DNA from: an uncultured virus (IMG/VR IMGVR_UViG_3300025127_000026)
Taxonomy: Duplodnaviria > Heunggongvirae > Uroviricota > Caudoviricetes > Crassvirales
IMG/VR virus record: IMGVR_UViG_3300025127_000026
Strand: one strand, 5' to 3'
DNA length: 64,000 bases
Positions within the stretch are counted from its first letter, which is position 1, and each line of letters begins with the position of its first letter. Under the pieces are notes generated by a model. The model ran no database searches and was not told the origin of the DNA. It saw nothing but the letters and a program-made list of their open reading frames with translations. Both the position numbers and the translations under genes were made by a program. Shown in pieces: positions 9,647 through 63,677 of this stretch.

Positions 9647-9683
9647 ATTATGTGGAGGCTATTGCGGTAGCTGTTAAATAAAT

Positions 9684-9845: not shown

Positions 9846-9879
9846 CTGGTTACAGGAACTTTGGGTATGGTGCCCATTA

Positions 9880-10152: not shown

Positions 10153-10295
10153 TACTTTTTCTTTTTAACTGGTCTACAAGCAGGTACCATTTTTTTGCCT
10201 TTCTTTTTCATAATAATTTTACCACTTTCATCTAAAGCAGTATAACCATCCCAACAAGGGTTTTTGTCTCTTTTTGTTCTTTTTTTTGTTGCCAT
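10152..10295 (-). CDS. 47-aa basic protein (absent from ORF track)
   Basis: MATKKRTKRDKNPCWDGY...KKMVPACRPVKKKK, TAATG-coupled on both sides. Confidence 0.7.
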   Translation of the reverse strand: MATKKRTKRDKNPCWDGYTALDESGKIIMKKKGKKMVPACRPVKKKK

Positions 10296-16200: not shown

Positions 16201-19200
16201 CATCTGCAACTAGGTCTTTGATACGATCTATTAATTTTTTCTTTTCATCTTTCATTGCGTCTAAAGAAAACCTTTCATTAACCTCTGCTTCTGACTCTAC
16301 TTCTGCTTCAGGCATAGCTTGATCAATTGGTTCAAGAATACTAGGTGGAGTTTTTCTTTTAGGTCTTCTACCTGGCGATCTTTTTACTTTTTTTGGTTTA
16401 TCAGGTAATACAGTTTTAGCGATCTCAGTAGCTTGCTCTACATCACCCTCAGCCATTAAATCTAGCAACTTCATTAACTCACCATCATTATCTAAATTTA
16501 ATTGTATTGAGTTATCAGTTTCAGCTCCAACAAAATTATTTATAGTTTGTTTTATTTTATCTAATATAGGCTTTTTAAATTCAGCTTTACGCTTTCGCAT
16601 AAAATCTCTTAAATTAGCTATTTGCTCATCAGCTACAGCAACAGGATCATCTGGAAACAAGTTCATATACTCGTCCATTTTATCTTCAAACTCTTTTTTA
16701 TCTTTTTTGCTTTTAAATACAATATCTCCATTTGCTATGGCTTTATCTATATCTGCAGCTATTTCTAATGTAATATCTTTACCTGCTATTTTTTCTAATT
16801 GTTCAGTAAAAAAGTGATCTGCTTCATGTTCAAAATCTAAAACTAGCACACCATCATTTTTATTAGCATTAATCAAAGCTACTTCTTTATTAAAGATCAT
16901 TGGTCCACCATCTTTAATAAACAACGCTGGTTGAGGTATTCCGTTTGCAAATATACTTGAACCATTTTCATTAGCTATAGCTTCTGCTTCTTCTGTTGTT
17001 TCAGCAACAACAACATTAACATCTTGCTCTTTCATTTTATTTAAAAACTCTTCAGCTTTAGTGTCAAATTCTTGAGCTTGTTCGCTTATAAACTCATCTT
17101 GTATATTACCTTCGTCGTCTGTTAATTTGTTAGTAAGATCAGTTATTTGTTCTTCAACATTCTCTAATTCTTTTTCTAACTCAACTTTTTTATTTTCTGG
17201 ATGTACTTTTTCTAATTCTTGCTCTAAAAAGTATTTATCTTTTTCTAGTTGAAACTGAGTTAATGATTCTTCTACGTCAAGCTCTAAGTCTACTTTTTGC
17301 ATAATGTCATGAATGGTTTTAACCTTTTCTTTAGACTTGTTAGCTAAATCTTGAGCTTCTTGAATTTTTTCTTTTTTCTCTTCTTTTGTTAAATCTTTTC
17401 TTTGTTTTATTTTTGATATTTTTTCTTGTAGCTCTTGATCAATCTGCTTCACAAAGTTATTTTTAACTTTTTCTATTTTTAGTAAAGCTACATTTTTAAA
17501 TTCATCTTTTAATTGATTGTAAGTTAAATCAGCAGCTTTTTTACTAGACATTATGTTAACCGACATCATACTGCCTTCTAATATACCTATTCCAGCTAAA
17601 GAAACTACGGCAACATCTTTTAGTCTAGCCATATGTTCTGCAGTCCCAAATTCAGTAGTACCATAAAGCTCAGTACCTATCTCTTGTACTTTATCATCCA
17701 TGGCTAGCTCTATAAACATGTTCATTTCCTCTTGCAAAACCTCATCAGCTACGTTAAAAGCTGTAGATGATGCACTTTTTATCAAGCCTCCATTTACCAT
17801 GTTTCTTATTTCTTGATCTATAAACTGTCTAAATGTTTGGCCTGGAGCTCTTTTCTTTATAGCTTTGTTAGTAAGTAAAACTGCTAGTTTAGGCATTACA
17901 CCTTTTCCAGCTATAAAGTCGATACCTATTTTATCCATAGAAGCTTCAATAACAGGTTTAACTAGCTCTATAACTAATAAATCTCCAGAATCTAAAGGAA
18001 ACTCTTTACCTGGATTTTTCTTTTTCCAATCTTCAATTAACTCATTAGTTTCAACAACACCATCTTGAACCAATCTAGCCATAATTGTTATAGGCATGTT
18101 CTCTGTTATAACTAGCTGTGCTAAAGCGCGTTTGTTTATTTTCCCAGTTTTATAAGCATCTATAATAATATTATTAGTTTCACCTACCATTCTTCTATTT
18201 GTAGGACTTGTAGCCCAATCAATTCCTTTTGCAAGTTTAGTTGCTCTTCCTGCTGCACTTAAACCTTTAGTACCTATAATATCCATAGTAATATCAATAA
18301 GTAAACCTACAGTTTTACCAGCAAAATGGTTTTCAATATCAATTTCAGCTAAATCAAAACGTTCTAAATCACCTCCTGGTTTAAATTTAGATCCTTCTAT
18401 TACTTTGTCAGTTTCTGTAGCGATATAATCACTTAGATTATGAACAGCGTCTGCATATTCCCTTAGAGCATTAGCAACAGAATTACCATCATCATCTACC
18501 GCGTCTATCATCGATGCTATAACTCTCGTACCCGCCTCATTTAATAATAGCACTAATTCACCCAAGCCAGGTATTATTTTTATAACGTTACCCATTACTC
18601 TATTAACGCCCCAAGCAATAGCTTGAGCCCAAGTGGTGTCTTTGTCTTTTAATGCTTGAAGTATTTGTTCATCAGCTTCTGCGGCATATTCCATTAATTG
18701 TGGTATTTGCGCTAAATTAAGATTAGCTAAATTATTTAAATAATCTAACTTTTCTTTTTCTTTTTTGTACTGATCGTGTAAATCTATTTTTTTAACATTA
18801 TTTTCTATTGCAACATCAGGCATAGCCATACCTCTAATAGTTGGAGAACTAGCTCCTTCTGATATAATAGAAGGAATACCTCCTGAGTCATCAAATCTAG
18901 TTGCTTTTGGAAATACTATTTGTAATTCAGAATTAGGTGATTTTAAAATTGTAGTTTCTATATCAACACCATCCATCATCATGTCAATACCTGAATCCCA
19001 ATTAGATTTATCTATAAAAATATCATTACCAGCTTTATCTTGATAGGTTATTGTATAGTCTGACAAAGACAAATTATTATAGTCTGTTAGTATTTGTTTA
19101 TAATTTTTTCTACTTATTTCTACTAAATCTATTCTGCCATTTATTTCTTCTTCTAGCTCTTTAGTTGGGTTTTTATTAAAATCTTCTTTTAAGCTGTTTA

Positions 19201-21220
19201 TGTAATTTATATCGTCATTTATTTCTTTGACTTTAACACCAAGCAAACTTTCCATACTTGCGTTTATAGCTCTATTTTTATTTGTTATATCAGTTAAATT
19301 TTTAAATACATCACTATTAGCTATTTGATCTCTCATGTCCATAGCTTGTTGTTGTAGTTCACTAACTTTCTCTACTGTGTCTAATAACTTTTGTTGTGGA
19401 GTTTTATCGGAAGTAGAATTATAACATTCAGCATTTTTAATCATCCAATTTTTAATGTTATTTTCTCTTGTTTTTGAAAAAGATTTAAATCTTGGTGAGT
19501 CAACAGGTATGGTTTTGCTAGGTTTTAAATATTTTAAATCTTCTTCTGTAGGTTCTTTAGATCCGTAAGCACCGCCTACACCTACAGCAACAGATTCTGA
19601 CTTCCATATACCTAATGGTATTGATGGAGCTAATCCACCATTTTTACTTAATATATCGCCTGTGTAAAAATTTGCAGTAACATCTTCAAGCATTGGTAGA
19701 CCAACAGCGTCAAAAGCAACGTTTGCATATAATCTATCATTAGCTACATAAAATCCATATGATCTTAATTCACTATTGTTTAAATCAACAGCTTCTGTAT
19801 TTAAATTAGATAAATCTCCTTTCATATTGTCCATGGCGGACTTAAATATTTTTTTAGATTTTTCACAATCAATTTCATCTGAAGATAAAATATTACCTGT
19901 ATCAGGGTCTATTAATAATTCTACATCAGGATCAAATATATCATCAGTATATTTAGTAGTAGAAGTTTCCATGAAAGTCTTTTTCTCAAACTCAGTGGCT
20001 TTATATTTTTCTTTTAGCTCTGGAGTTATTATGTCATATGATCCACCATCATCTGTGCTAGGTGTAAATTCAGCAAAGTCTAATGGAGCAACAAATGTTC
20101 TACCATCTTCTGTAGCATAAACACCTTTGTCTTGGCCTGATATTGTGTATTCAAACTCAGTTGGTGTAAAATCTAACTTCCACTCTTGTGATCCATCTTC
20201 ATTAAATATTGGAACATTATAATCATAACTAGGTATCATTACATTTTCCTTTATGTTTTCTTCTCCAGTAAATTGTACTCCTATTAATTTAGCTTCTTTA
20301 GGTACTGTAGATCCATCTACTGTAACTTTAGGGACACTTTCTTGTATTCGCGACGATAAGTCAGGATCATATTCTTCTATTTCATCTAACGTGATAATAT
20401 CGTAATCTGGATCAATGTCTGTATCAGGGTTTGTTAATGCAATGTCATTCATTAAGTTTTGAAAGTCTTCAACTTTTACAAACTCATCAACACCTCCTGT
20501 AGCAAACAAACCTTTTTCCTCATCTGTTTCTATTTTACCTTTTTCTTCTAATTTCTCAAAATCCCCAACTCTATCAGTAGATGTGTAGATGTTTAAATCT
20601 TCGTCAAATAATTTATCTTGTATTAAATCATTTAATCCATCATCGCCTGTATCAGGAATAGACCTAATATCTATATATTCTTGTCCTTCTGGTAGTTCTT
20701 CCTCAGATGTTATATTTACTTCACTAACTTTGTTTTCCTCTATAAACTTATTAATTTTATTAGTTGTATCAGGAACTTTTAGTTTCTTTTTTTCTATTTG
20801 TAATTTTCTCCAGTTAGGATTAGTGTCTATTTTATCTACACCTCTAATAGGTACAGGATTTATAGCTGTTTTAGTTTTGTCATAATTAACAGCTCTAGGT
20901 ATTCTTTTATCTTTTATAGGTTTAGGTTGACCATCAGTCCAAGTGGTTACTCCATTTGGTAAAACACTATTTTTACCTTCACCTTTTAAGGTAAATTTAA
21001 TTTTTTCTCCAACACGTAAATCACCCCAAGCATTTCTTCCATTAGCTTGATGTTTTGTTTTGGAAGTTTTTAGTCTTTTGGGTTTTATTGTATTTTTTAA
21101 ATACTTACCCTTTTGCTTTCTTTTACCAGAAACAACATTAGGATTTTTTGATTTAGCTTTTTTACGACGCTTACCTGGACCTGGACCTCCGAAATTTGAT
21201 TTACTAGAAAATGTAACCAT
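10295..21220 (-). CDS. giant (3641 aa) polyvalent internal virion/ejection protein
   Basis: Last gene of the structural operon. Contains HEADH zincin motif (16814-16828), HAD motifs DFDDT/LTAR/FSDD (about 12920-13335) and a hydrophobic helical C-terminal region. Confidence 0.75.
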   Translation of the reverse strand: MVTFSSKSNFGGPGPGKRRKKAKSKNPNVVSGKRKQKGKYLKNTIKPKRLKTSKTKHQANGRNAWGDLRVGEKIKFTLKGEGKNSVLPNGVTTWTDGQPKPIKDKRIPRAVNYDKTKTAINPVPIRGVDKIDTNPNWRKLQIEKKKLKVPDTTNKINKFIEENKVSEVNITSEEELPEGQEYIDIRSIPDTGDDGLNDLIQDKLFDEDLNIYTSTDRVGDFEKLEEKGKIETDEEKGLFATGGVDEFVKVEDFQNLMNDIALTNPDTDIDPDYDIITLDEIEEYDPDLSSRIQESVPKVTVDGSTVPKEAKLIGVQFTGEENIKENVMIPSYDYNVPIFNEDGSQEWKLDFTPTEFEYTISGQDKGVYATEDGRTFVAPLDFAEFTPSTDDGGSYDIITPELKEKYKATEFEKKTFMETSTTKYTDDIFDPDVELLIDPDTGNILSSDEIDCEKSKKIFKSAMDNMKGDLSNLNTEAVDLNNSELRSYGFYVANDRLYANVAFDAVGLPMLEDVTANFYTGDILSKNGGLAPSIPLGIWKSESVAVGVGGAYGSKEPTEEDLKYLKPSKTIPVDSPRFKSFSKTRENNIKNWMIKNAECYNSTSDKTPQQKLLDTVEKVSELQQQAMDMRDQIANSDVFKNLTDITNKNRAINASMESLLGVKVKEINDDINYINSLKEDFNKNPTKELEEEINGRIDLVEISRKNYKQILTDYNNLSLSDYTITYQDKAGNDIFIDKSNWDSGIDMMMDGVDIETTILKSPNSELQIVFPKATRFDDSGGIPSIISEGASSPTIRGMAMPDVAIENNVKKIDLHDQYKKEKEKLDYLNNLANLNLAQIPQLMEYAAEADEQILQALKDKDTTWAQAIAWGVNRVMGNVIKIIPGLGELVLLLNEAGTRVIASMIDAVDDDGNSVANALREYADAVHNLSDYIATETDKVIEGSKFKPGGDLERFDLAEIDIENHFAGKTVGLLIDITMDIIGTKGLSAAGRATKLAKGIDWATSPTNRRMVGETNNIIIDAYKTGKINKRALAQLVITENMPITIMARLVQDGVVETNELIEDWKKKNPGKEFPLDSGDLLVIELVKPVIEASMDKIGIDFIAGKGVMPKLAVLLTNKAIKKRAPGQTFRQFIDQEIRNMVNGGLIKSASSTAFNVADEVLQEEMNMFIELAMDDKVQEIGTELYGTTEFGTAEHMARLKDVAVVSLAGIGILEGSMMSVNIMSSKKAADLTYNQLKDEFKNVALLKIEKVKNNFVKQIDQELQEKISKIKQRKDLTKEEKKEKIQEAQDLANKSKEKVKTIHDIMQKVDLELDVEESLTQFQLEKDKYFLEQELEKVHPENKKVELEKELENVEEQITDLTNKLTDDEGNIQDEFISEQAQEFDTKAEEFLNKMKEQDVNVVVAETTEEAEAIANENGSSIFANGIPQPALFIKDGGPMIFNKEVALINANKNDGVLVLDFEHEADHFFTEQLEKIAGKDITLEIAADIDKAIANGDIVFKSKKDKKEFEDKMDEYMNLFPDDPVAVADEQIANLRDFMRKRKAEFKKPILDKIKQTINNFVGAETDNSIQLNLDNDGELMKLLDLMAEGDVEQATEIAKTVLPDKPKKVKRSPGRRPKRKTPPSILEPIDQAMPEAEVESEAEVNERFSLDAMKDEKKKLIDRIKDLVADGKAKNQKEIDATQDRIKDINESLSKAQKRDKRTSKNADNVAIIEDPNSKLSAKRRAENELIEDNREPIVQWVVNSKMKGNEYIGTFVTKDGEEIKVAVPRSEIEEGLRSKEFSDIYNNFFKRGPKFKDMPFHLKLQGDLIKRWQQVVDPLVKKYALEKRDNEEGPSLLDQGAVTQDDALIKDAAPIKFINMRQAIGLIPGSDVYEDIKKSVQDTFRGKLPTLESGDLKKALQDAYALNGEQAVRKLIDDMGGVEAFLDTYGEEIYDIMPQSIMNKSFQDFIVKGDRLNVEGTREAESEGKITRSKSKTKETAGNFIYTKEPYNKKKWIKYHTDPKSVGAKGTKYTKKTQLVQTLAKVLGLDATMEVLTDQDVMDMFNERNQLLGQADVLAEEIGYLLDRDPRARFALGITAKDIDTVRKQIMGAVKRAYDKATKDPQIQIDAFDDELELLDPELLRIYAPIFDRLKQLFRTKATGYKKKIKDLIEKAKIPENYKIEARKVNETQTQSLGRGVPEAMQEIHNYAKDVMARLNSKVAKALGGSNFFSYMYGYLDGGDKSRGKGEKFGPYKNELDEINAIVAKLNENEELDFTPEDIRLINATSGILSKAETILDKDLALEDTTDENGKLIKGKRTLLGINEDGTVKPGGIFDQLQKANVANIKAIDYILNKSAQAIAQDNSLIPGFLRWLETMTNNTKSLRALSRLANMEVLAGPQAAFYNPNTGKYKNALSAADKKSGDFVVNYNHPRYNEAEKEAKEKAPNDVEKQQEIIAKKLNYKGEHIDVASNLFADLGVSTLETAAKLQNAKSEQERKGILESFSNQNELALRKYDQSHTTKVEADKVDDKTSTTDATDYIRVSNLPRTPDKVSVSDPNLDVQEEVEKNIITDEEIQEAVTNSIEADQATKESNNDAVEDAGVMEMEGDLTGPEVLGKMATLDAALINARSKMPELRKLRVFDFDDTLAKTNSKVFYTMPDGSTGELTAEGFATLGDGIREAGGEFDFSDFNRVVDPEKGPMLDLFRKMYEAEGEREIMILTARAPEAAKAIQAWLKSEGFDIPLRNIIGLGNSSPQAKAEWFVGKAGEGFNDFYFSDDAPQNVEAVQDVLNVVDVKSQVQQAKERFALDGEKIADRLFTMVASKNKKLSKEALENISDIKAEIKGSDIKENILARSSTQNFTGLLYKFLGKGQEGNDDWNFLKDNLVRPYTRALNELAAIKNTLLADFEATLENFVGSGKPIQKLNDAVPGLGGYTYEDAIRILAWDKQGIVAEGVPKTTMEKIRALSTSNMAIDKMASQLIKINKGDDYYYPGANWRAGTMLNDLLQGITKIKRPKVLAEWSQNIETIFGKDNGSRFNGQLMNAIESTYGSKYRQSFEDMLRRMKSGRNRRMGNTQRENRFYDWLNNSVGAVMFFNMRSGILQTLSAANYINWSFNNPAKAAAAFANQPQYWKDFMNLFNSDFLVDRRGGMKINVSESEIFDIQNSKGNKAKEFLNLLIRKGFSITQIADSFAIASGGATYYRNRIKDLVSKGMDKEEATAQAYEEWTSLSREAQQSSDAMEISSEQAGGLGRVILAFANTPMQYNRLIGKAISDLTNGRGDYKSNISRILYYGAIQNMMFNALQQAVFAAIGNDDPEDLDEKTIATLNGMLTSLMRGMGVAGSIMSAIKDVGLDLYDRATNEEKPRPEFYKSVFEALNIAPPLDVKVSKFVRGMNTYEYNMDSPATKDYFNIENPLYMSGALITASITNLPLDRLLQKMINVKDAMTEEQETWKSLFELAGWSEWQLESKSQQEKREEKESDAKHYYRAIEKPSLYNKAEQEDILRQHGFTPEQIKGLKTQDQRVTAILAAQASSGKTYTSKIPNVKSDEIKDVKSITPIEVEPKPKVKSTPKKVKSDTIPKPNKVNFTENTSFKNNRVPVEKRNAQELKLYELPAAEQKDSLRSLGLSDDEIKALKYEGDRVRKILELQK

Positions 21221-41418: not shown

Positions 41419-41687
41419 TTACTTCTCCCTTCTGCAAACTTAAAAATTCTTTCTTTGACTTCTTCTTTTGGTTTAGCTTCTAGTATATTTTCTTCTTCCT
41501 CTATTCTACTAAGTATTTCAAAAGCATCAAAAATTGCTAACTTCTTTGTCGCAGCTGCGTTCTTTAGTCGGTCCGCAGTCACATCCTCCCCTGTGTCCAC
41601 AATCGGTTCCTTTGCTACTTTTATTAATTCTTTGACTGCTAATTGCCCAGCTTGGATTATATTCTTTTTCGTTTCCTTCGTATTCAT
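41415..41687 (-). CDS. putative terminase small subunit
   Basis: Helical 90-aa ORF, ATGA-coupled to terL. Confidence 0.45.
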   Translation of the reverse strand: MNTKETKKNIIQAGQLAVKELIKVAKEPIVDTGEDVTADRLKNAAATKKLAIFDAFEILSRIEEEENILEAKPKEEVKERIFKFAEGRSK

Positions 41688-42228
41688 GCTTTATTAAAAT
41701 ATCTTTTGATTTCATACAATATAATAGTTCCTTATCCACAACAAATTCCCATTGTCTTAAATCAGGAAAGCTAACTAAATCACCTTCGTTTATGCCTAAT
41801 GAAGTTAACTGATCATTACCATATTTAAGTATTCCTAGATTGTTAATAACCTTTTGTCCTAGTTTGCTTGATAATAAGGGCTTTATAAAACATCTATCTA
41901 AAAAAGCTTTATTACTTCCATTGTTATATAAGTAAATTTGATCAGGCGAACAGAAATATAAGTTATCTTTAAAATAAGATCTACTGTTTTGTTGCTTACC
42001 TTTCATATTATAAAACTTTCTAAATACGTTGTGGTGAACATAAACTACATCTCCAACTTTAATTGGCAAGTTATAAGCTTTGGGGATACTAATTACTTTA
42101 GCTACTTTATTAACTATTTTAAATGATTCTATCTTAGTATTTAGTATTAGGGATTTATTATCTACCTTTATTTCGTTATTATATCTTTTTCCTAGTGGTT
42201 CTATTATATAGTCATATAAACTATTCAC
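41527..42228 (-). CDS. GroES-like-domain protein
   Basis: YIIEP...AKVISIP...IKVGDVVYVHH, then a second similar unit RCFIKP...GINEGDLVSF. Confidence 0.45.
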   Translation of the reverse strand: MNSLYDYIIEPLGKRYNNEIKVDNKSLILNTKIESFKIVNKVAKVISIPKAYNLPIKVGDVVYVHHNVFRKFYNMKGKQQNSRSYFKDNLYFCSPDQIYLYNNGSNKAFLDRCFIKPLLSSKLGQKVINNLGILKYGNDQLTSLGINEGDLVSFPDLRQWEFVVDKELLYCMKSKDILIKHEYEGNEKEYNPSWAISSQRINKSSKGTDCGHRGGCDCGPTKERSCDKEVSNF

Positions 42229-50008: not shown

Positions 50009-50269
50009 TTATATTACTATTACTATATCTTGCTCTTTGATAACTTTGAACATTTTATCTTTTATTTCAATATTAAAACCAGCGTGCCTATCATAATATA
50101 TTTTATCACCAGATTTTAATAATGTTACATCAGAACCTGGGTTTAACACCTCAGCTTTTTGATATCTTATATCTTCTCTTTGTTTATCAGACAAAAGTAA
50201 ACCACCTTTTGTTTTAGTAGTTTTTTCTTGCAATTCTTTTATTACTATATATTTACCTACTGCTTTCAT
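50009..50269 (-). CDS. groES: co-chaperonin GroES
   Basis: KTKGGLLLSD mobile loop, LKSGDKIYY, IKEQDI; adjacent to groEL. Confidence 0.9.
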   Translation of the reverse strand: MKAVGKYIVIKELQEKTTKTKGGLLLSDKQREDIRYQKAEVLNPGSDVTLLKSGDKIYYDRHAGFNIEIKDKMFKVIKEQDIVIVI

Positions 50270-51806
50270 TTGCTCTCAAATTATTGATTACACAATCAGT
50301 TGATAAAATCGTGGTTGCTACTGAAGCCGCGTTTTTTAAAGCGCTTTTAGTAACGAGTAGTGGATCTATTATTCCGGCTTTTACCATATCCACGGAATTT
50401 CCTGTAACCACGTCTAATCCTAATCCTTCGTCTTCGCTTTTGGTATTTGTTATACCTGCATTTTTTAAAATAGTATCATATGGCGATGTTATAGCTTTTA
50501 ATAATACTTTTTCTCCTTCAGATTCAGGTTTTATATTTTGTGAAGCATTTAGCAAAGCTATTCCTCCACCTGGAACTATACCTTCCTTTATCGCGGCTTT
50601 TGTAGCACATATAGCATCTTCAACTCTATCTTTTTTTTCTTTTAATTCTACTTCTGAATTAGCTCCTACTTTAACAATAGCAACTTTACCTGTTAATCTA
50701 GCTATTCTTTTTTCTATTTGTGTAACTAATGTAGGATTTGAAGTTTCTTTTATTTGTTGTTTTAAATCATTGATAATTTCATCAATATCTTCAGAAAAAT
50801 AATCTCTTTGTATAATGGTTTCAGCTGAATTACTTACTGCTTTCAAGCAACTACCTAGATGGTCTTCAGTGATCATTTCCATATCATCACCTAAATCTTC
50901 ATTTATAATAGTAGCACCTGTAATTAAAGATAAATCTTTTAAAGTGTTTAATTTATTTACCCCATATGTAGGAGCTTGTATAACGTTGACTTTAATATTA
51001 CCTTTTATTTTGTTCATAGCTAATGCAGACGAGACACTTGGTTCTACATCTCCAATTATTAATAATGCCTTATTTCTTTTTATAACATGTTCTAATACAG
51101 ATTGTATTTGTCTAATGTTTTCAATTTTGTTTTCTACTAAAAGAACTAATGCATTATCTAATTCTGCTACACCTGTATCTTGATTTGTTATAAAATGAGG
51201 ATTTAAAATTCCTTTTTCATATTGAGCACCATCTACTACTTCTACTGTTGTTTCAGCTAAATCATGTGTTTCCATCATTACTATGCCTGTTTCGTCAACA
51301 GCTTTAAATGCATTAGCAATAATTTCTCCAAGTTTTTTATCATTATTAGCCGATATAGAAGCAACTTGGTTTATCGATTTACCTGAAACTTTTTTAGACT
51401 TTTTCTCTAAATATTTAACAACTTTGTCTACACAAGAATTTATACCTTCTTTTATTTCTCTGGTGTTGTTATTTGCTAAGTTTTCATATGCAGTATTAAG
51501 TATAGCATGTGCTAATACTGTAGCTGTAGTTGTACCATCTCCAGCTTCTTTTACTGTTTTTCTTGCAGCTTCTTTTAATAATTTAGCTCCCATGTTTTCA
51601 ACTGGATCTAATAATATTATACTATCAGCCACTGTTACACCGTCTTTTGTTATTTGCGGATTTCCTAAACTATCTTCAAGTATTACACACTTGCCGCTAG
51701 CTCCTAATGTGGAGCTAACAGCTTTAGTAAGTTTTTCAATACCTTTAAAAATAGTTTCTTTTGCATCTTTACCGAAGTTAAGATGTTTAACTATTGTTTC
51801 GTTCAT
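50253..51806 (-). CDS. groEL: chaperonin GroEL
   Basis: ITKDGVTVA, GDGTTTAT, EKKDRVEDA, GIVPGGG, GIIDP. Confidence 0.97.
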   Translation of the reverse strand: MNETIVKHLNFGKDAKETIFKGIEKLTKAVSSTLGASGKCVILEDSLGNPQITKDGVTVADSIILLDPVENMGAKLLKEAARKTVKEAGDGTTTATVLAHAILNTAYENLANNNTREIKEGINSCVDKVVKYLEKKSKKVSGKSINQVASISANNDKKLGEIIANAFKAVDETGIVMMETHDLAETTVEVVDGAQYEKGILNPHFITNQDTGVAELDNALVLLVENKIENIRQIQSVLEHVIKRNKALLIIGDVEPSVSSALAMNKIKGNIKVNVIQAPTYGVNKLNTLKDLSLITGATIINEDLGDDMEMITEDHLGSCLKAVSNSAETIIQRDYFSEDIDEIINDLKQQIKETSNPTLVTQIEKRIARLTGKVAIVKVGANSEVELKEKKDRVEDAICATKAAIKEGIVPGGGIALLNASQNIKPESEGEKVLLKAITSPYDTILKNAGITNTKSEDEGLGLDVVTGNSVDMVKAGIIDPLLVTKSALKNAASVATTILSTDCVINNLRANESSR

Positions 51807-55455: not shown

Positions 55456-55486
55456 TATAAAATAAATACGGATATTTCTAGATAAT
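55456..55486 (+). promoter_or_regulatory. early promoter-like motif, copy 1
   Basis: TAAATACG(55463)-N10-GATAAT. Confidence 0.7.
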
Positions 55487-55512
55487 AATTATAAATAATA
55501 AAACTAATAACA

Positions 55513-55767
55513 ATGAATATAAATAAATTACCTCAATTAAATAATAATCACGAATATCTAATTGACAACTCAGATTACTCAGAATTATTTGAACGACTAA
55601 ACTATAATACAGAAGACTACCTCATCGTCTACTCATATATTCACGACATAATAGACGTAGTAAAAGAATTAATAAACTACAATGTAGAATTCTCACATCA
55701 CTCTTGTCATTTATCTGACGAATCATACTTACTAATTAACTACAAAGAAGAAAATCTACATATATAA
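55513..55767 (+). CDS. hypothetical early protein
   Basis: ORF downstream of motif copy 1. Confidence 0.55.
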   Translation: MNINKLPQLNNNHEYLIDNSDYSELFERLNYNTEDYLIVYSYIHDIIDVVKELINYNVEFSHHSCHLSDESYLLINYKEENLHI

Positions 55768-55769
55768 AT

Positions 55770-55800
55770 TATAAACTAAATACGACTAACAACAGATAAT
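55770..55800 (+). promoter_or_regulatory. early promoter-like motif, copy 2
   Basis: TAAATACG(55777)-N10-GATAAT. Confidence 0.7.
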
Positions 55801-55841
55801 AATATAAACTAAACTAAATTAATAATAAATAAATAATAACT

Positions 55842-56078
55842 ATGAAAAATTCTAAATTAACAACAAAAAGATTTGTAATAAGAAAATCTTTAATCGGTGA
55901 AAATACAATTATAACTTTCACTAACAAAAAATCTCAAACTTTCACTTATAATCACGACGAAATATACTCACTATTTCAAGAAAAATTTGAGTCAATGCCA
56001 TGCTTTCAAGAATATGGAAGTTATACTAACTCTAACATTGTACCTAAATTCTGCAGAGAATATAGTGAAATGTCATAA
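55842..56078 (+). CDS. hypothetical early protein
   Basis: ORF downstream of motif copy 2. Confidence 0.65.
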   Translation: MKNSKLTTKRFVIRKSLIGENTIITFTNKKSQTFTYNHDEIYSLFQEKFESMPCFQEYGSYTNSNIVPKFCREYSEMS

Positions 56079-56084
56079 GTAACA

Positions 56085-56131
56085 TGTGACAGTAGCCTGT
56101 TACTATTATATACTAACAAGCTATTGTCATA
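56085..56131. repeat. 47-bp inverted-repeat element, copy 2
   Basis: TGTGACAGTAGC...GCTATTGTCACA. Confidence 0.75.
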
Positions 56132-56245
56132 CTATACTTATATGAATAACGTTACATACTAATGTAAGTTATCGCGAGACTTCGCGCAACAATACTAAAC
56201 TAAAAATAATAACTAAACTAATATACACCTTTAAAATTAAATAAA

Positions 56246-57305
56246 ATGTCTAAATATAAAATACAAGAAACATTAACATATATCTTCCTTACTTCATGGC
56301 TAATTGGAATTATCTTAATCTCAATTGTCAACTAAATACGATATAGTAACGATATTAATAATAAATAAATAAACATGTAGTTGATCGCCATAATTTAGCA
56401 TGTATAAATAATACGAACACTTGGCGCAGCACAACTTTTTAAAATTAATACTTATGCAAAAATTAAATCTTATACACTCAATTTTAAATCACAAAAACCT
56501 ATTTAAACCTCAACCAAAAACAGGCAATAATTACTCAGACCCTATTACTCCAAATATGCTTTGCTCTAATTATTTATTTAACTACTATTACTACTTAAAT
56601 AATTCTGACCTAACTCATATTTTAAGCAACTTAAATAAACTAAAATAATAACTTTAAAAATTAAATACTATGTATAATATAAATAATCCTTCAAACTGGT
56701 CATGGTCAAAAGCGTTTGACGAAATGGCTAAAACAGTAAATCAAGCTGAACTCACTCAGCAATCTATAAATCATGTACTCGATTATCCTGGTGAAGCTAA
56801 TGGTGTTTTCATGACACTAAGTAAATCAAAACAAGATGATGTTTACGAAATACTAAATCAAATACTATGAATAATCTAAATACAACTATAGATAAAGTAG
56901 CAATGTCAGAGTTTGGTATTCACTACTATTTACTCGGTGAAAACGAGCAACAATGGTGTCACGATGAATTAGTAAATAACCCTAAATGGCTATCAAAAAT
57001 ATGAAAACTAAAATATACTCAAATCAAACACTAACTGTACTAGATTTTGGCAGTGGTGAAATACATCAGTATCACGATGTAGACTATGAGAAATATCAAA
57101 TGGAACTTGACGAGTTTGTCGGAGTACAACTCGGTTATAACTTAAATGAAGTAGAATATATGTTCCATACTGACAAAACCGTTTATAACTTGACACTTGA
57201 ACTATGAAAATAACTAATAAGCAATTTAATATAATAACAATAATGATAGCAACTATGTTACTAATAGAATTAATAAAAGTAGCTACATTTATATAACTTA
57301 AATAA
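56246..57305 (+). other. cluster of small early ORFs (56246-56335 TM peptide, about 56454-56648, 56670-56870, 56867-57004, 57001-57207, 57204-57305)
   Basis: Tightly packed, often ATGA-coupled short ORFs with no recognisable function. Confidence 0.5.
56326..56356 (+). promoter_or_regulatory. early promoter-like motif, copy 3
   Basis: TAAATACG(56333)-N10-GATATT. Confidence 0.6.
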
Positions 57306-57306
57306 T

Positions 57307-57681
57307 ATGAAAAAAATAATAATGACAATAGGTGCTTTCGCTATGTTAACACTTGGCCAATCACAAAACTGGAAAGCTAACGAAGCACTAAATACATTAG
57401 CAGATATGGAAGAGTGGATGCGTGAAGATGTAGCTAACGGCAGAATAAATCCTGAATTAGGCGAAGAGTATATTAATAATATTCAAAGCGTACTAAAACT
57501 AGTATTAACTATTGATGACGAAGATGCTTGTGTTAGAGATAACGACATAGAGTTTGACAGATTAAATAGTAGAAGTGAAATAGATACTGACCCTACTTAT
57601 TACGAACGTAAAAAGAAAAGGTCATTCACTTTATTCAAAATAGTAATTGAAAATCCAGTTGCTTCTAACGACTCTTTATAA
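57307..57681 (+). CDS. secreted/periplasmic hypothetical protein
   Basis: Signal-peptide-like MKKIIMTIGAFAMLTLGQSQ. Confidence 0.6.
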   Translation: MKKIIMTIGAFAMLTLGQSQNWKANEALNTLADMEEWMREDVANGRINPELGEEYINNIQSVLKLVLTIDDEDACVRDNDIEFDRLNSRSEIDTDPTYYERKKKRSFTLFKIVIENPVASNDSL

Positions 57682-57707
57682 TATAAATACGATTACTATC
57701 AGATTAT
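57677..57707 (+). promoter_or_regulatory. early promoter-like motif, copy 4
   Basis: TAAATACG(57684)-N10-GATTAT-N6-ATG. Confidence 0.7.
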
Positions 57708-57713
57708 AATAAT

Positions 57714-58148
57714 ATGAAATGTAAATGTAATAAAATTATTCCACCTGCTCGTGTTGCACTCGGTTATACTACTTGTGTCGAGTGTTCCACAGTTGAGCGG
57801 TATGGTTGTATAGATACTATTAACCACAAAACAGGTAACTCAATACAAGTTATGTCACGTAGCGATGCAGATAAAGCTAGTAAATTACTAAAACGCGCAG
57901 GTTACTCAACTCTTCGTGCTTTATCAGGTAAATCTGTAACTAAAAAATCTAAAATCAATAAAGGTTGTCGCTTAACTAATATAGGTAATCAACAACTATA
58001 CGAACAAATAGGTAAAATGTATGTAGATTACTACGATGTTGATGAGAAATTAGCAAATCGTTATTTACTACGAGCATTAAACAACTTAGAAATAAATCAA
58101 CTACAGTACAATACTATTATAAAACTAACACAACTAATTACAAATTAA
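57714..58148 (+). CDS. protein with N-terminal DksA/TraR-type C4 zinc finger
   Basis: CKC..IIPPARVALGYTTCVEC. Confidence 0.6.
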   Translation: MKCKCNKIIPPARVALGYTTCVECSTVERYGCIDTINHKTGNSIQVMSRSDADKASKLLKRAGYSTLRALSGKSVTKKSKINKGCRLTNIGNQQLYEQIGKMYVDYYDVDEKLANRYLLRALNNLEINQLQYNTIIKLTQLITN

Positions 58149-58169
58149 ATACGAACAAGTAACGATAAT
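58139..58169 (+). promoter_or_regulatory. early promoter-like motif, copy 5
   Basis: TAAATACG(58146)-N10-GATAAT-N6-ATG. Confidence 0.7.
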
Positions 58170-58175
58170 ATAAAT

Positions 58176-59978
58176 ATGATGCACGAATCAATAGAAACAT
58201 ATATAATGACCGATAACCTCGACGCTATCATCTACAAAGATGGCGATATGAAGCTCCAAATCTTCAATAAATACAAATCTCCATACGGTTGGTCACCAAG
58301 AAAGCTAATGCTTAGTTGCTATGGCGTGCAAGCAAACGAATTCACTTACGATTATGTAAGTAACAAGGTAGATGAGGTCTATTCTACCTTTAACAAAGAC
58401 GAAATAGACGAGTTAATAACAAAAGTAAATAAATACAAATGCTTAAAAAAATAAGTATATTACTTATAGCTTGTAATTCATGTGCTATGAATGAAAATGT
58501 GATATTCTATACACATAATGTAAAAAAATGTGTACATAATTTACAACAAATAGAGTCATGGATCCACCACGATATAGAAAATGGTAAAATACCAGTTGAT
58601 ATTGGTGAAGACTACATGATAGCGATAACACATACTAAAATTAGTTTACAAGAAAAATACAAGAAACATGATAAGTAAAAAAATTAAACAACTTCAAAAC
58701 CTGTACTCATGGAATGAGTTTTACCAAGGCACAGGTAATAAAACACAGATGAGAAAGTGCCAAACTGAAATCCACCAGTTGAAAAGTGAGATTAACGAAT
58801 TAAAAACTAAGAAAAAGTGAAAGATACTAACGCGATAGAAAAAGCACTTAAAGTTAAAGTAAGCGAAGAGTGCAGAGAAATAGTAGACAAATTCATTACT
58901 GATTTAGAAAAACTATCAAACAAGTATGGTGGTTGTAATTTTTACGACTTTAAAAAACCTAGTGATGAAAACTATGAATTTATGGTAACAGGAACTCACG
59001 GAGTAACTAGTGTACTACATAGAATGATATTAGATAATCACGGTGGACAAATGTTGAAACAAAAGTCACAAGAGCTAATCAAAAAACTAGATTTAATATG
59101 ACTGAGCAAGAAGTAATATGGAAAGTGTGTGACAGAATAGTTGATACACTATATAACGAGCTAGACTACTATATGTTTGAAGAATTAGGTTATACTGAAA
59201 CTGACGACAAGTATGTTGAAGACGCTGACAAACTAATAACTAAAGTAATAAATGAATTAATAAAATAACTATGGCAAATATGAGTTACTGCAGGTTTGAA
59301 AACACTGCAAGAGATTTAGTAGACTGTGTAAACGCTATAAGACAAGGTGATATACACGAGTTGAACAACTACGAGCTAGATGGTTTAAAAGATATACTAG
59401 ATCTAGCTGAACAAATAGTAGAAGATAAAGAATATATACAAGAAATTATAAACAATGACTGAAATACAGAAAATACAGGCGATAACACAAGATATATTAG
59501 CCGGATATTATGGTAGCGTACAGAAATGCGGTACAGAAACACAGAAATATACTTACGCTTTTGAACAAGCTAAGAAAATATTTGCAGGTGAATTACTAAT
59601 AGATCCTAATCACTTTCCTACAATATGAGCGATCACAGAACAATACAAGAGTATTTAACTTACCAAGAAGAGGTTGCAATACCGAAATTAAGATGGTTAC
59701 AGGTCAAAACTCTTAAAGAACAATACCCAAATGATCAAGAATTTGGTTCAAAAGTAAGAGAACTTGTTAATAATACAAAATAAATACGAATAGTAATCGA
59801 TAATAAAAATATGAATACAATAAAAACACATACAGCAGATCGATCAAAAGTAACAATAACCAAAATAATCGATGGTAAAACAGAGAAAAGAACTTATAAA
59901 GGTTATACTATAAATAATATACCAGAAGAGTGTAATCACTGGTTCAACTACAAAGGTTTGACTTTTGTAATAAACTAA
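58176..59978 (+). other. cluster of small early ORFs (58176-58454, 58439-58678, 58817-59101, 59271-59462, 59811-59978 and shorter ones)
   Basis: Contiguous coupled ORFs. 59271 begins MANMSYCRFENT, a common phage hypothetical motif. Confidence 0.55.
59774..59804 (+). promoter_or_regulatory. early promoter-like motif, copy 6
   Basis: TAAATACG(59781)-N10-GATAAT-N6-ATG. Confidence 0.7.
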
Positions 59979-59987
59979 AAACCACGA

Positions 59988-60158
59988 CTTCAACACACCG
60001 TGTCGTAGCGGTGAAGAAGACAAACAGTGGGGTTGAGTGACGGCTCAGCTTGGACAGCGAGGTCAGGTTTAATAATGAGATATAGGTTAAGCGGAAGACA
60101 CACCTAGCGTTATTAATGACTGTTCTAGACATGAGAGGTTCGACTCCTCTCTCTCGCT
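59988..60158 (+). ncRNA. structured RNA with tRNA-like 3' domain
   Basis: T-arm AGAGG-TTCGACT-CCTCT, acceptor-like AGCGAGG/TCTCGCT, long internal stem and two upstream hairpins. Confidence 0.6.
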
Positions 60159-60160
60159 CT

Positions 60161-60295
60161 ATGAAAACAATAAAAGTAACTATGAAGGAAATATACGACG
60201 CTATGCGTCCTTCAGTGCAGAAAAATAAAAAGAAGTACACACGCAAAACTAAACACAAGAAAAATGGCGAAGAAAAGAACTATAAACGAACTTAG
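60161..60295 (+). CDS. 44-aa basic ArfA-like peptide (absent from ORF track)
   Basis: MKTIKVTMKEIYDAMRPSVQKNKKKYTRKTKHKKN... Confidence 0.55.
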   Translation: MKTIKVTMKEIYDAMRPSVQKNKKKYTRKTKHKKNGEEKNYKRT

Positions 60296-60695
60296 ACAAA
60301 CCAAAGATGCGGTCTATACTAATCCAAGCGCTAATAAAGGTTGGGATATAGAAGGTCACATAAAATATAATAAAGAAATAAGCAATCAAGGTGGTGACTT
60401 TATAAAACCAACTAACGAACCAGCTAAAACAACAGGAGAAATAATGAATCCAAGTAAATACACAGAAAACGATTTAGAACAAGCTAAATGTTCTATAGCA
60501 GAAAAAATAACTAAGCATATGAATGACACTATATTCGAAATAGTGTGCGAAGAAATGAGTAATAACTATTTATTTCAATCAGATAATTACTTAACTGAAG
60601 CAGGCTATGATATGTTTGAAGATGAGTGGTTTGAATTTTACCACGAACATCACGGAGATATTATGCATCAAGTAATGCAAAATATTACAAACTAA
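60264..60695 (+). CDS. hypothetical early protein
   Basis: 143-aa ORF. Confidence 0.6.
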   Translation: MAKKRTINELRQTKDAVYTNPSANKGWDIEGHIKYNKEISNQGGDFIKPTNEPAKTTGEIMNPSKYTENDLEQAKCSIAEKITKHMNDTIFEIVCEEMSNNYLFQSDNYLTEAGYDMFEDEWFEFYHEHHGDIMHQVMQNITN

Positions 60696-60716
60696 ATACG
60701 AACACTAACAGATCAT
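60686..60716 (+). promoter_or_regulatory. early promoter-like motif, copy 7
   Basis: TAAATACG(60693)-N10-GATCAT-N6-ATG. Confidence 0.7.
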
Positions 60717-60722
60717 AATAAT

Positions 60723-62171
60723 ATGAAAAAATTTAATCAAATGGAGTCTAATCTTATCTGCGATGCTTTACAATTTTATGTAGCTCAAGTAGAAAGAGAT
60801 ATATTACAAATGGAAAAAGATGGTAAAAGATCTATCTTTGCACAAGGTTTTTATACTCAAGTATCAAAAGAGCTAAAAGACAAAGTTAAGACTATGACTA
60901 AAAAACAAAAAGTATGACACTATACGACAAACTTAAACCAGAAATCAAAGCTAAACTCGAAGAAAACTATAAAGAATATAAAACAGTAAGCTTTATCTTT
61001 GATAAATTAAAATCAACAGACTATTACTCTGAGTTAACTATTGATGATATAAGATCTATATGCACATTCGGCGACGTATGGCATCACGATCTTACTCAAA
61101 CACAGTTAATTTATGGAGAATGGCTAACAAATAAACCACAAATATAAATCTAATGACAGAAAAACAATATGAAGATGCGTTAGTTGCACTAGGTTGCAAA
61201 GACGTTACAAGTAAAACACAAAAGAAAAACGGCACTACAGCATTTAGGATGCCTGATGGTAAAAACATGGTTACTGAACACAAGTCAGGCTATATTAGAA
61301 GAACAATGCTAAGTCCAACAGGTAGAGTAAGAAGTTGCTATCAACTAAATCCTCAATACCTTACAGATTATAAGTACTTTGACACTCATGGTAACGAAAA
61401 AACTTTTAAAAGAAATAACAGAGCTCTTATATGGTCAAGAAAAGCAAGACTTAAAAGACTATTTTTATACACAATTAAAGCAGTAAATAATGGGTAATTA
61501 CGCAAGAGAAGGACATATGCTTGATGAAAGAATGATTGAGCTTGTCAAAAATCATTTAGAACTATCAATATCTCAAAATATAAATGATTTTGATAACGTA
61601 GATTGTATGATCTATAATGAGTCAAGTGCAGATGGATATGATCTATGGGTTGTAACCAATGACAGTAGAAACGTTAGTATATGTGAAAATGTTTACTATT
61701 ATGAAAATGATCTTGCAAATGCTTTTGAAGAGCAAGTAAGATGGGGTGATAAAACTTTTTATATTGATAACTATGTGTACGAAGACGCTTACATTGAAGA
61801 TAAACTCATTGAGATGTTTTCAGAAAATGTCGAAGATATTGTAGAAAATGATGAACTAGATATTACATTAGAAGAAGTTAATTATTTAAAGAAAGAATAT
61901 GAACTCGAAGAAACTGAAGAAGCCGACAGCCCCGAAGTGGTTTAAAGGCATGATATATACAAAAGGTGAGAAAGTTCAAAACCCTTTTTCAGGTGAAAGT
62001 TATGAGCTAACTGGTTTAGAACTAAGCATTTACGACTTTATTATAGGTTGTCAAATGGTTTTTGACTCAGCACCTAATACTATGACAAATAAAAGAATAA
62101 CTGAATTTCAAAAAGCATTGAACTGGTTTAGGGTGAATAACCCTGAAGCATACTACGTGTTGTTAGATTAG
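60723..62171 (+). other. run of hypothetical early genes (60723-60917, 60914-61147, 61153-61497, 61490-61945, 61899-62171)
   Basis: Overlapping or coupled ORFs with no recognisable function. Confidence 0.6.
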
Positions 62172-62185
62172 TAGTAGTTTAGTTT

Positions 62186-62354
62186 CCGCGAATAAGCGCG
62201 TGAGATGTGTAGAATAGCAACTGCTCTGAATGTCAGACTTTCGAGTCCATCATCAGGACTATTCATCTTACTCACTTGGCAAGCTCGTACTTAAGATACC
62301 TCAGTCATGGCTGTATAGCTATATGAAGCGGGTGACGGTACGGGCTATTCGTGG
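62186..62354 (+). ncRNA. about 170-nt structured RNA (three-way junction)
   Basis: Closing stem CCGCGAATA/TATTCGTGG with two long arms and a UUCG tetraloop; locally GC-rich. Confidence 0.65.
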
Positions 62355-62355
62355 T

Positions 62356-62553
62356 ATGAAACAATTCTTAAAATTTACAGTAATATGGATAAGTCAAAAC
62401 TTAGCAACTCCATTTTGGATTGTAGGTCATATACACTTATCTGTTAATGTATACAAAGATATTTACGAAATACTAAGCTCTATAGGTTTAAATATTATAG
62501 TAGCAATAGGTTTTTATATAGATTATAAAACAAATACGAATACTAATAGATAA
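62356..62553 (+). CDS. small membrane protein
   Basis: MKQFLKFTVIWISQNLATPFWIVGH...; likely start is 62356 rather than 62230. Confidence 0.6.
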   Translation: MKQFLKFTVIWISQNLATPFWIVGHIHLSVNVYKDIYEILSSIGLNIIVAIGFYIDYKTNTNTNR

Positions 62554-62554
62554 T
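62524..62554 (+). promoter_or_regulatory. early promoter-like motif, copy 8
   Basis: CAAATACG(62531)-N10-GATAAT-N6-ATG. Confidence 0.7.
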
Positions 62555-62560
62555 ATTAAT

Positions 62561-62857
62561 ATGGATAAAAAAATAATGAATGAACTAGCTGATCTTATTG
62601 TAGCTAAGCTAGAATTAAAACAACAACAATGGGATGATGAATTTCACAATTCTATTGCTGACATGTATGGTAAAGAAGGTCATAAAGAAGCTTTTGTAAT
62701 GACAGAAGAAGAAATGTTAATAGGTGAATTAGCGAGACTTCAAACTATATTAATGATATATGAAAATAACGAAGAATACGAAAAAGCTGCTATTGTACTT
62801 AGTAAGCTTAATGCAGTTAAAACAAAATTAAGAAAAGGAGATTACAATGACGATTAA
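62561..62857 (+). CDS. protein with C-terminal UVR-like coiled coil
   Basis: ENNEEYEKAAIVLSKL. Confidence 0.55.
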   Translation: MDKKIMNELADLIVAKLELKQQQWDDEFHNSIADMYGKEGHKEAFVMTEEEMLIGELARLQTILMIYENNEEYEKAAIVLSKLNAVKTKLRKGDYNDD

Positions 62858-63677
62858 ACCTATGCTAGCGCATAAATATAACCCTGACAAAGCTGATTAC
62901 CCTGCATACATACAGCCAAAACTAGACGGCGTAAGATGTGTATTTACAAAAGACGGCGCATACAGCAGAACAGGTAAAGAGTTTATGAATGTAGATCACA
63001 TTAAAAAAGCACTTAAAAACTTTTTCAATGCTAATCCTACATTTATACTAGATGGTGAATTATATAACCACGGACTAAAAGATGACTTTGAAAAGATTAT
63101 ATCTTTAGTAAGAAAAACTAAACCAACTGAAGAACACAAGCAAGAAGCTGCAGAACTTATACAATATCACGTGTATGACGTAGCTAATCTTGCTCATGCT
63201 ACATACACTAACAGACTAAACATACTAACTAGCTCATTTACGTATACATATCCTATATGTAAAGTTGAAACTAAAATTGTACTAGACTATGACGAAGCTG
63301 TTAAACAACACAATAAATACTTAAAACTAGGTTACGAAGGTAGTATATACAGATCTACAGATGGTAAATATAAAAATACTAGATCATGGGACTTAATGAA
63401 GTTCAAAGATTTTGAAGACTCAGAAGCTACGATCGTAGGCTATGAAATAGGTAAAGGTAAGAGACAAGGCACGGTTGGTAAGTTCATCATGCAAGATGAC
63501 GAAGGCGTAGAATTCGGTTGTCCACCGGGTAAAGGCTACAACTACAAGGATCTTGCAGGTATGCTCGATAACATTAGTGACTATATAGGTCAACGTGCTA
63601 CCTTTACTTATTTTCAACGAACTCAAGCAGGTTCTTACAGGCATCCGCTATACAAATGTATTAGGAACTATGAATAA
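62847..63677 (+). CDS. ATP-dependent DNA ligase
   Basis: QPKLDGVRC (KxDG), ILDGELY, YDV, GYEGSIYR, LMKFK, OB-fold C-terminus. Confidence 0.93.
   Translation: MTIKPMLAHKYNPDKADYPAYIQPKLDGVRCVFTKDGAYSRTGKEFMNVDHIKKALKNFFNANPTFILDGELYNHGLKDDFEKIISLVRKTKPTEEHKQEAAELIQYHVYDVANLAHATYTNRLNILTSSFTYTYPICKVETKIVLDYDEAVKQHNKYLKLGYEGSIYRSTDGKYKNTRSWDLMKFKDFEDSEATIVGYEIGKGKRQGTVGKFIMQDDEGVEFGCPPGKGYNYKDLAGMLDNISDYIGQRATFTYFQRTQAGSYRHPLYKCIRNYE

Follow-up and report, generated by a model that had tools for sequence, protein, structure and literature searches.

The sequence at positions 62186–62354 (+ strand) of the window, the whole stretch of 64,000 nucleotides of DNA from an uncultured virus of the Crassvirales that was analyzed here, is, as comparison with its relatives shows, one decorated copy of a repeated hairpin cassette located at early-gene boundaries of related phages. 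Only a skeleton of about 40 nt is conserved, which consists of an outer clamp helix, P1 (CCRCGAA/UUCGUGG), a core hairpin, P3 (AGCUCRUAC...GUAYGGGCU), and a short U run, and it occurs one to five times per complete related phage genome, on one strand only. A preliminary description had presented the element as a single novel 170-nt RNA with a three-way junction, a view that we do not retain, since the junction varies among the relatives and the element belongs to a repeated family. The parts of the window copy are as follows.

62169..62185 (+): stop codon of the upstream early ORF, then the conserved 5′ flank TAGTAGTAGTTTAGTTT, which has stop codons in at least two frames; in relatives the flank is also found at two different upstream genes
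62186..62194 (+): 5′ strand of the P1 clamp helix, CCGCGAAUA, with its partner at 62346-62354; the motif across the family is CCRCGAA
62195..62213 (+): 5′ half of the arm 1 base module, AGCGCGUGAG followed by 2 hypervariable nt and GUGU...
62214..62262 (+): arm 1 apex module, AUAGCAAC...GACU-UUCG-AGUC...GGACUAU, a self-contained hairpin
62263..62281 (+): 3′ half of the arm 1 base module, UCAUCUUACUCACUUGGCA
62282..62291 (+): 5′ strand of the P3 core hairpin, AGCUCGUACU, with 10 pairs to 62337..62346
62292..62336 (+): arm 2, an optional hairpin module within the P3 loop, known from 15 distinct copies
62337..62346 (+): 3′ strand of the P3 core hairpin, GGUACGGGCU
62346..62354 (+): short U-rich tract (UAUU; UUUU in most copies) and 3′ strand of P1, UAUUCGUGG
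62355..62553 (+): U62355 and the small early ORF (ATG 62356, 65 aa), with the translation start region inside P1/P3

Arm 1 extends from 62195 to 62281, and arm 2 as first described comprises the P3 helix (10 bp) with a further hairpin in its loop.

The window covers most of the phage genome, and the relatives form a clade of uncultured marine phages of about 63–68 kb. Genes for the portal protein, the large terminase, GroEL- and GroES-like proteins (50253-51806 and 41527-42228) and lysis, as well as an ORF of 3641 aa, are encoded on the − strand, and the + strand contains genes for replication and nucleotide metabolism, a sigma-like protein and, beginning at about 55.5 kb and reaching the end, a series of small ORFs of early type. 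The sole match of the 3641-aa ORF (10295-21220, −) was to a polynucleotide-kinase-like sequence, at residues 2615-2804 (PHROG 415, E 2.4e-9), with no match in Pfam or among the PDB sequences. A Flavobacteriia-type host is likely: members of the Flavobacteriia are the hosts of the nearest cultured relatives, and the primase-helicase has its best cultured match, with 43% identity, in Cellulophaga phage phi10:1. Start codons in the phage follow A/T-rich, unpaired upstream regions that lack Shine-Dalgarno (SD) motifs, a loose SD pattern being seen before 5 of 46 starts. No match to the region 61900–62900 was obtained with blastn against cultured phages, and the region is absent from the nearest record (G001).

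All helices of the preliminary description are present in the sequence. The closing stem is formed by CCGCGAATA at 62186-62194 and TATTCGTGG at 62346-62354 (9 bp, one G.U among them), and it ends at 62354, so that ATG 62356 follows after 1 nt. Arm 1 contains GTGAG 62200-04 / CTCAC 62271-75, GAATAG 62212-17 / CTATTC 62259-64, CTGA 62226-29 / TCAG 62253-56 and the GACT-TTCG-AGTC cap at 62236-47, and arm 2 contains GCTCGTAC / GTACGGGC at 62283-90 / 62338-45, TACCT / GGGTG at 62297-301 / 62330-34, TCAT / ATGA and GGCT-GTAT-AGCT. Folding with ViennaRNA reproduced the three-way junction and paired GUGAGAUG with CAUCUUAC at the base of arm 1, which is a register different from the GTGAG/CTCAC pairing proposed earlier; the comparative data are compatible with either pairing and favor neither. 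The minimum free energy is −56.3 kcal/mol on the + strand (z −2.08; 8 of 200 shuffles were equally good) and −44.1 kcal/mol on the − strand (z −1.49), so the fold energy by itself is weak, mild support for a structure. The element is also GC-rich, as had been claimed, with a GC content of 0.40–0.42 versus 0.22–0.35 in the adjacent DNA. That the fold at 62186–62354 is real and conserved in structure is indicated by the homologs, which keep P1, P3 and arm 2 with compensatory and wobble changes and thereby place it beyond chance.

Homologs to the protein from the upstream early ORF, 61899-62171 (+), are encoded by 13 viral contigs, and in 9 of these (L001-L009) an element that has the ends of the window copy and a different interior comes after the ORF. 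The minimal copy, from L002, is about 48 nt long (CCACG-UUC-GCUCGUAC-loop-GUACGGGC-UUUU-CGUGG), and other relatives have unrelated arms. Exact searches with a 19-nt tail motif yielded 51 matches in 48 viral loci, and a covariance model of the core hairpin plus tail yielded 62 matches from 57 sources. The five relatives rated 100% complete (63-68 kb) contain 5, 2, 1, 2 and 2 copies, with each set located on one strand within a few kb; the window itself has 1 copy, and across the family the copies sit behind at least 5 different upstream genes. Tandem cassettes before a single downstream gene were observed in two relatives, with two cassettes in L005 (2788-3093) and three in L011 (3185-3513) and other hairpin modules between them. 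Bacterial genome contigs gave 6 matches, of which 4 were to short, AT-rich, phage-like contigs in MAG bins and the other 2 to GC-rich sequences without the 5′ half of the hairpin, which we took as chance; thus, no bacterial chromosomal copies were found among the genome contigs searched. A search with a loose hairpin pattern recovered mostly unrelated sequence and was used for three variant copies and for the use of the stem in terminators.

The core hairpin provides the clearest comparative signal. Standard pairs account for 98.4% of 576 cells in P3, versus 28–48% when the partners are slid. One P3 pair is split between G-C (29 rows) and A-U (28 rows), the closing pair alternates between U.G, U-A and C-G, and 55 of 58 rows retain a U.G wobble, an indication of the + strand. 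In arm 2, for which the 15 distinct copies are 96% identical, 99.4% of the cells are paired, compensatory changes occur at 2 pairs (U-A / U.G / C-G and U-A / C-G), and all one-sided changes are wobbles that are functional on the + strand only. The assignment to the + strand, previously made from the G-U pairs, therefore stands, as the wobbles of P3 and arm 2 fit a + strand RNA only, and we consider the structure of P3 and arm 2 to be under selection on that strand, as far as can be judged from the alignments. Because the copies are related, the covariation amounts to few independent events, and several strands, including the 3′ strand of the arm 1 base, which is therefore uninformative for covariation, were fixed by the search patterns.

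For P1, compensatory variants were identified in the form of CUACGAA/UUCGUAG (3 copies) and ACACGAAA/UUUCGUGU (1 copy), and one more copy has UUAUGAA/UUCGUAG with two U.G pairs. The 3′ strand of P1 was fixed by the first search pattern, and these variants came from other searches. Among the copies with a UAUU tail, 11 of 12 have a matching ...AAUA on the 5′ strand of P1. A Watson-Crick partner of the tail of at least 7 bp is located upstream in 50 of 103 copies, versus 5% after shuffling; when G.U pairs are allowed and the partner is at least 5 bp, the figure is 98% versus 92% in shuffles, so the existence of a partner alone proves little. The support for P1 is accordingly taken from the Watson-Crick statistic and the compensatory variants. 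The 5′ motif ACGAA of P1 is also found in unstructured 27-nt linkers of the phage, and it may be conserved for another reason than pairing.

These patterns bear on a role at the level of DNA, in which the element would act as a promoter, as a palindrome or cruciform bound by a protein, or as a target into which small mobile DNA is inserted at the hairpin loop. A block of about 20 nt is near-invariant across sites, as such a role might predict, and the same modules recur at places whose flanks are unrelated (P3 loop, arm 1 apex, junction, outside P1), a pattern that resembles insertion and not homologous exchange. We nevertheless consider this role very unlikely: the U.G wobble and the one-sided changes fit + strand RNA only and would be A.C mismatches on the other strand, the distance between the 5′ and 3′ strands of P3 varies by up to about 50 nt, unlike a promoter, and neither the 13 + 34 proteins scanned nor the PDB search revealed a virion RNA polymerase, a transposase or a homing endonuclease. 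A hairpin promoter of the N4 type was considered separately and rejected, in that the 3641-aa ORF had no RNA polymerase match in Pfam, PHROGs or the PDB sequences, and the conserved U.G corresponds to an A.C mismatch on the template strand.

The arms differ from the skeleton in that they are optional, self-folding modules that are swapped, nested and moved among copies. Being self-folding, they leave the skeleton intact. The arm 1 base module is common to 41 distinct copies and carries at least 9 different apex modules; a metagenome scan with its 3′ strand recovered 57 loci, of which 3 were unrelated and GC-rich and 47 were further distinct family members. The apex module of the window is also found in L185, L209 and L213, and in L011 it is located directly at the P1/P3 junction, without the arm 1 base, where the flanks differ and still pair. 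An exact 28-mer from the arm 1 apex gave 0 matches in the viral contigs. The P3 loop contains either 7-8 nt or one of at least 6 inserts. A GAGACAG... module serves as the arm 1 apex in some copies and as the P3 loop insert in others, a ACUGUCGU... module was found in three contexts, and hairpin modules are also nested within one another’s loops, with UUCG and GNRA-type caps present. The forms in the relatives thus range from a plain hairpin of about 48 nt to multi-branched structures, in which P1, P3 and the tail are the only constants. A two-hairpin module of about 48 nt, CGGGYATGAGTGTGATRCYGTAACTYGAYCYAAAAACAWACRAGCG, was observed in L015, L046, L054, L057, L005, L007 and L011, placed inside P1, outside P1 or between tandem cassettes; its loops are conserved, its stems both show compensatory changes (GGCAU/AUGCU vs GGUAU/AUACC; CUCG/CGAG vs CUUG/CAAG), and it has no match in Rfam.

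The replacement of the arms bears on two further explanations, the first of which is that the element is part of a protein-coding gene, namely an ORF of 107 aa at 62230-62553. The ATG at 62230 is in frame with that at 62356, and conservation of this frame at the codon level had been named beforehand as an observation that would speak against an RNA. The frame is not conserved: stops are present in 10 of the 11 upstream in-frame stretches retrieved from relatives (one more was empty), and the arms are swapped for unrelated sequences of other lengths, while the protein starting from ATG 62356 is conserved. A coding role is thereby refuted, and we assign it next to no probability. Among the homologs it is thus the base pairing that is conserved, not the reading frame.

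A second explanation is that the element is excised as a stable RNA that acts in trans, as a decoy or sponge for a host RNA-binding defense or RNase, with the exchanged modules as its working parts. P1 unites both ends, as in many processed stable RNAs, and the turnover of modules between close relatives is very fast; the presence of tRNA-Met in the same slot in L010 and L013 and of a tRNA-like element at a sister slot in the window has the same tendency. However, no loop or unpaired motif is common to all copies, and the minimal copies are bare hairpins. There was also no match to Rfam and no similarity to CRISPR repeats or tRNAs. We regard an excised trans-acting RNA as quite unlikely. Since there is no conserved unpaired core and the three-way junction itself is not kept as a fold, a ribozyme, one of the options listed previously, or a riboswitch is also unlikely.

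The claim that no known RNA family could be recognized was borne out by searches against Rfam 15, in which the whole window gave 0 matches at the gathering threshold. At E <= 10 the sole match overlapping the region was to sR30 on the − strand, with 17.1 bits versus 38, and 34 related loci at E <= 0.5 gave 1 irrelevant match. A resemblance to a hammerhead or C/D box on the − strand (CUGAUGA...CUGA) was dismissed, the only match being that to sR30 at about 17 bits and the GAAA core of a hammerhead being absent on visual inspection. ARAGORN identified 0 tRNA or tmRNA genes in the window; a degenerate tRNA at the element was rejected, as ARAGORN found nothing and the 8-nt match to the tRNA of L010 is within chance.

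The element is always located directly after a stop codon, which in the window is that of ORF 61899-62171. Among 107 distinct copies, 73 have an ATG at a distance of one base from P1, 4 have GUAUG there and 4 have UAGAUG; 11 copies run into a second repeated motif, 8 into another module or element, and 7 into other sequence. Complete ORFs at that ATG encode 40 aa or more in 47 of 49 cases and belong to at least 8 gene families. The 65-aa ORF at 62356 is a conserved gene on the + strand with 12 distinct variants. Its description as a membrane protein is plausible from two hydrophobic segments, of which the one at residues of about 35-57 is clear and that at 5-30 is weaker. Behind different upstream genes, the element is found together with the same families of downstream genes, and the homolog of ORF 61899 is followed by four different contexts among the relatives, so that the element and the downstream gene represent a moving unit. 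The small ORF in the window is bounded by a near-direct repeat (62355-62364 TATGAAACAA / 62524-62533 TATAAAACAA). Three relatives that do not have this ORF (L001, L024, L056) show GTGGTAT joined directly to ACAAACTAAATACGA, a joint that suggests deletion or insertion through short-homology recombination.

A second repeated unit, ATACGAAnAnTAAnnGATnATAAnAAT, is a linker of 27 nt from the stop codon of an early gene to the next ATG. It is spread over 55464-62560 (+), for example at 57682-57713, 58149-58175, 59784-59810, 60696-60722 and 62530-62560; the + strand of the early region has 8 matches, and the window as a whole has 10 versus 1.6 expected. The linker contains a GAT(A/T/C)AT hexamer at −12 to −7 relative to the first base of the ATG, and its ACGAA is the same as in the 5′ strand of P1 in the hairpin cassette.

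We observed here a structure, its strand, its repetition, its position relative to stop and start codons, and the swapping of modules and genes. From these we infer transcription through the element, processing or attenuation, an effect on translation, and which of the steps dominates. In the explanation that we favor, and to which we give about an even chance, the cassette is a cis-acting intercistronic element of early mRNA and also a recombination joint. A cis role for the ORF at 62356 was one of several options proposed earlier, and it is the one that fits best. The 5′ strand of P1 comes after the upstream stop codon and its 3′ strand stops one base short of the next start codon. P3, a hairpin of 9-10 bp, precedes a run of 3-4 U; arm 1 branches off where P1 meets P3, and arm 2 occupies the loop of P3. 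Stacked on one continuous 3′ strand, P1 and P3 would form a stable barrier between the cistrons of an early polycistronic RNA and a probable processing point for an endonuclease, comparable to the RNase III sites of T7 early RNA and to REP hairpins. The stack would protect or end the upstream message, and P1 would keep the next start region closed until the RNA is cleaved or unfolds. At the level of DNA, the skeleton would move with the downstream gene and serve as a joint for the exchange of small early genes, in the manner of the PeSLs described below.

Several observations relate to individual steps of this favored explanation. RNA-library contigs cover the early region, with possible DNA carry-over, and one of them spans 62001-62290, which is a weak hint of co-transcription; the two RNA runs, represented by contigs only, have no cover over 62278-62545. 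A sigma-70 scan identified no promoter-like site inside the element, which also contains no TTTG...TAnnTTTG of the Bacteroidota type (10 in the window vs 5.6 expected, not enriched). In Flavobacterium, initiation is lowered by structure around the start, unpaired A-rich start regions are favored, and leaderless mRNAs make up about 5% (PMC6847099, PMC9723704). Given these rules, poor use of a start placed against P1 is to be expected as long as the helix is neither cleaved nor unfolded.

A purely translational effect might be achieved if P1 masked the next start and translation depended on ribosomes that terminate upstream and melt P1, or that reinitiate across its base in a shunt-like manner. 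The stop is located 0-18 nt before the 5′ strand of P1 and the AUG 1 nt past its 3′ strand, so that the fold joins stop and start whatever the length of the insert, and the inserts that are tolerated are self-folding only. Yet within this 0-18 nt distance from stop to P1, sites A and B are too far for a terminating ribosome to open P1, and 30 of the 107 copies have no adjacent ATG. Such a dependence is in our opinion rather unlikely.

Alternatively, the element may be a plain leaky intrinsic terminator, that is, an attenuator of the upstream early gene, in which P3 and the U run would stop part of the transcription and P1 and the arms would be incidental. P3 is GC-rich and followed by U’s, and near-identical stems with long U runs are textbook terminators in other AT-rich phage contigs (e.g., L064, L171, L063). 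The cassette itself has UAUU in the window and UUUU or UUU in the relatives, which is only 3-4 nt and below the canonical number of about 6 or more, and neither the window copy nor the minimal copy was called in a terminator scan, whereas the clear terminators of this phage have 6-12 U. The short U run, the missing call and the lack of room for a promoter make a canonical terminator unlikely; with the ATG directly after the element, read-through must be the rule. The compensatory changes in P1, and the fact that the element moves with the downstream and not the upstream gene, also argue against an attenuator, which we rate as improbable. Canonical terminators, hairpins with long U runs, were observed at 9680-9725 and 9821-9850, in the convergent gap between the + and − strand gene blocks, and they contrast with the short U run of the cassette.

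A variant with more emphasis on processing is that the cassette acts as RNA punctuation, with excision at the base of P1 releasing near-leaderless mRNAs (U-AUG...) from the early genes of an SD-less host, and the excised, end-paired RNA acting in trans through its swapped modules, for example as decoys against host RNA-binding defenses. The excision would be analogous to that of tRNAs from mitochondrial transcripts, and the same scheme would have its variants in the genuine tRNA-Met of the distant relatives and in the tRNA-like element that the window has at a sister slot. We hold this combination to be unlikely. Among 44 loci searched with ARAGORN, tRNA-Met was found at the homologous slot in L010 and L013 only. 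These tRNA-Met (CAT) genes of the two most distant relatives (L010 2774-2847, L013 2922-2996) are located about 16 nt (L010) and about 190 nt (L013) downstream of the homolog of ORF 61899, in the region that contains the cassette in close relatives.

The sister slot in the window contains a second structured, GC-rich, non-coding stretch of about 185 nt at 59979-60161 (+), after the gene 59811-59978. It has a canonical T-arm-like sequence, GAGAGGTTCGACTCCTCTC, an acceptor-like AGCGAG/CTCGCT pairing and the end ...CTCGCTCT-ATG (ATG 60162), and may be a tRNA-like element. Its fold has a z of −1.6, it is kept in L005 except for a replaced apex of the long hairpin, and neither ARAGORN nor Rfam gave a match within it.

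Among described systems, the closest is that of the PeSLs (promoter-early stem-loops), which are cassettes found in T4-type phages (Arbiol et al., 2010, PMC2839356; Comeau et al., 2014, PMC4122927). The two share a repeated intergenic motif in a plastic early region that flanks small orphan genes, a stem-loop with G.U pairs whose 3′ end lies against the start codon of such a gene, and copies that mark the insertion, loss and exchange of genes, which is seen here as shared downstream families with varied upstream genes. The stem-loop of our cassette is well supported, its U run is short, and the terminator scan was negative. In contrast to the PeSLs, the defining promoter (sigma-70-like in T4-type phages) was not found in the cassette, which is hence no strict PeSL. 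The cassette furthermore has no SD, which the host type lacks, and has an outer clamp helix and nested swappable modules; it is present in 1-5 copies per genome versus dozens, in an unrelated phage lineage.

Other well-known systems share individual features with the cassette. The RNase III sites of T7 early RNA are sequence-related irregular hairpins of about two turns between cistrons, each with a lower stem, an internal loop and an upper stem. The cassette similarly has P1 of 5-9 bp and P3 of 9-10 bp with a continuous 3′ strand, in 1-5 related copies per genome, and by analogy a predicted cut would leave the hairpin with the upstream message and free the next start; it differs in the side arm at the junction in many copies and in a start codon that is much nearer to the helix. 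The REP/BIME elements of enterobacteria are transcribed extragenic palindromes after stop codons that form hairpin mosaics and affect mRNA stability; they are chromosomal, occur in hundreds of copies and are tied to RAYT transposases. The cassette is likewise a mosaic of hairpin units after stop codons, but it is located in phages in 1-5 copies, and no transposase was found among 47 proteins scanned. With intrinsic terminators it shares a GC-rich hairpin followed by U’s, and nearly the same stem serves as such in other phage contigs, but its U run of 3-4 nt is part paired in P1 and a gene starts at once. Unusual about the cassette are its clamp helix, a start codon placed at the base of this helix where SD sequences are lacking, and hairpin modules that are nested and mobile.

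Cassettes at gene boundaries that combine expression signals with recombination joints help to explain how phages shuffle their small early genes, many of which are involved in host takeover or counter-defense. The family described here extends this idea, in an unusual form, to uncultured marine phages of SD-less hosts. It consists of a tiny conserved RNA skeleton that tolerates, and seems to collect, nested hairpin modules moving among its loops. The start codons also abut a stable helix, which is at odds with present knowledge of how translation begins in Flavobacteria. Should processing at P1 be demonstrated, the cassette would represent a small natural tool by which cistrons are insulated and released, and if the modules act in trans, they would represent a new kind of hypervariable phage RNA.
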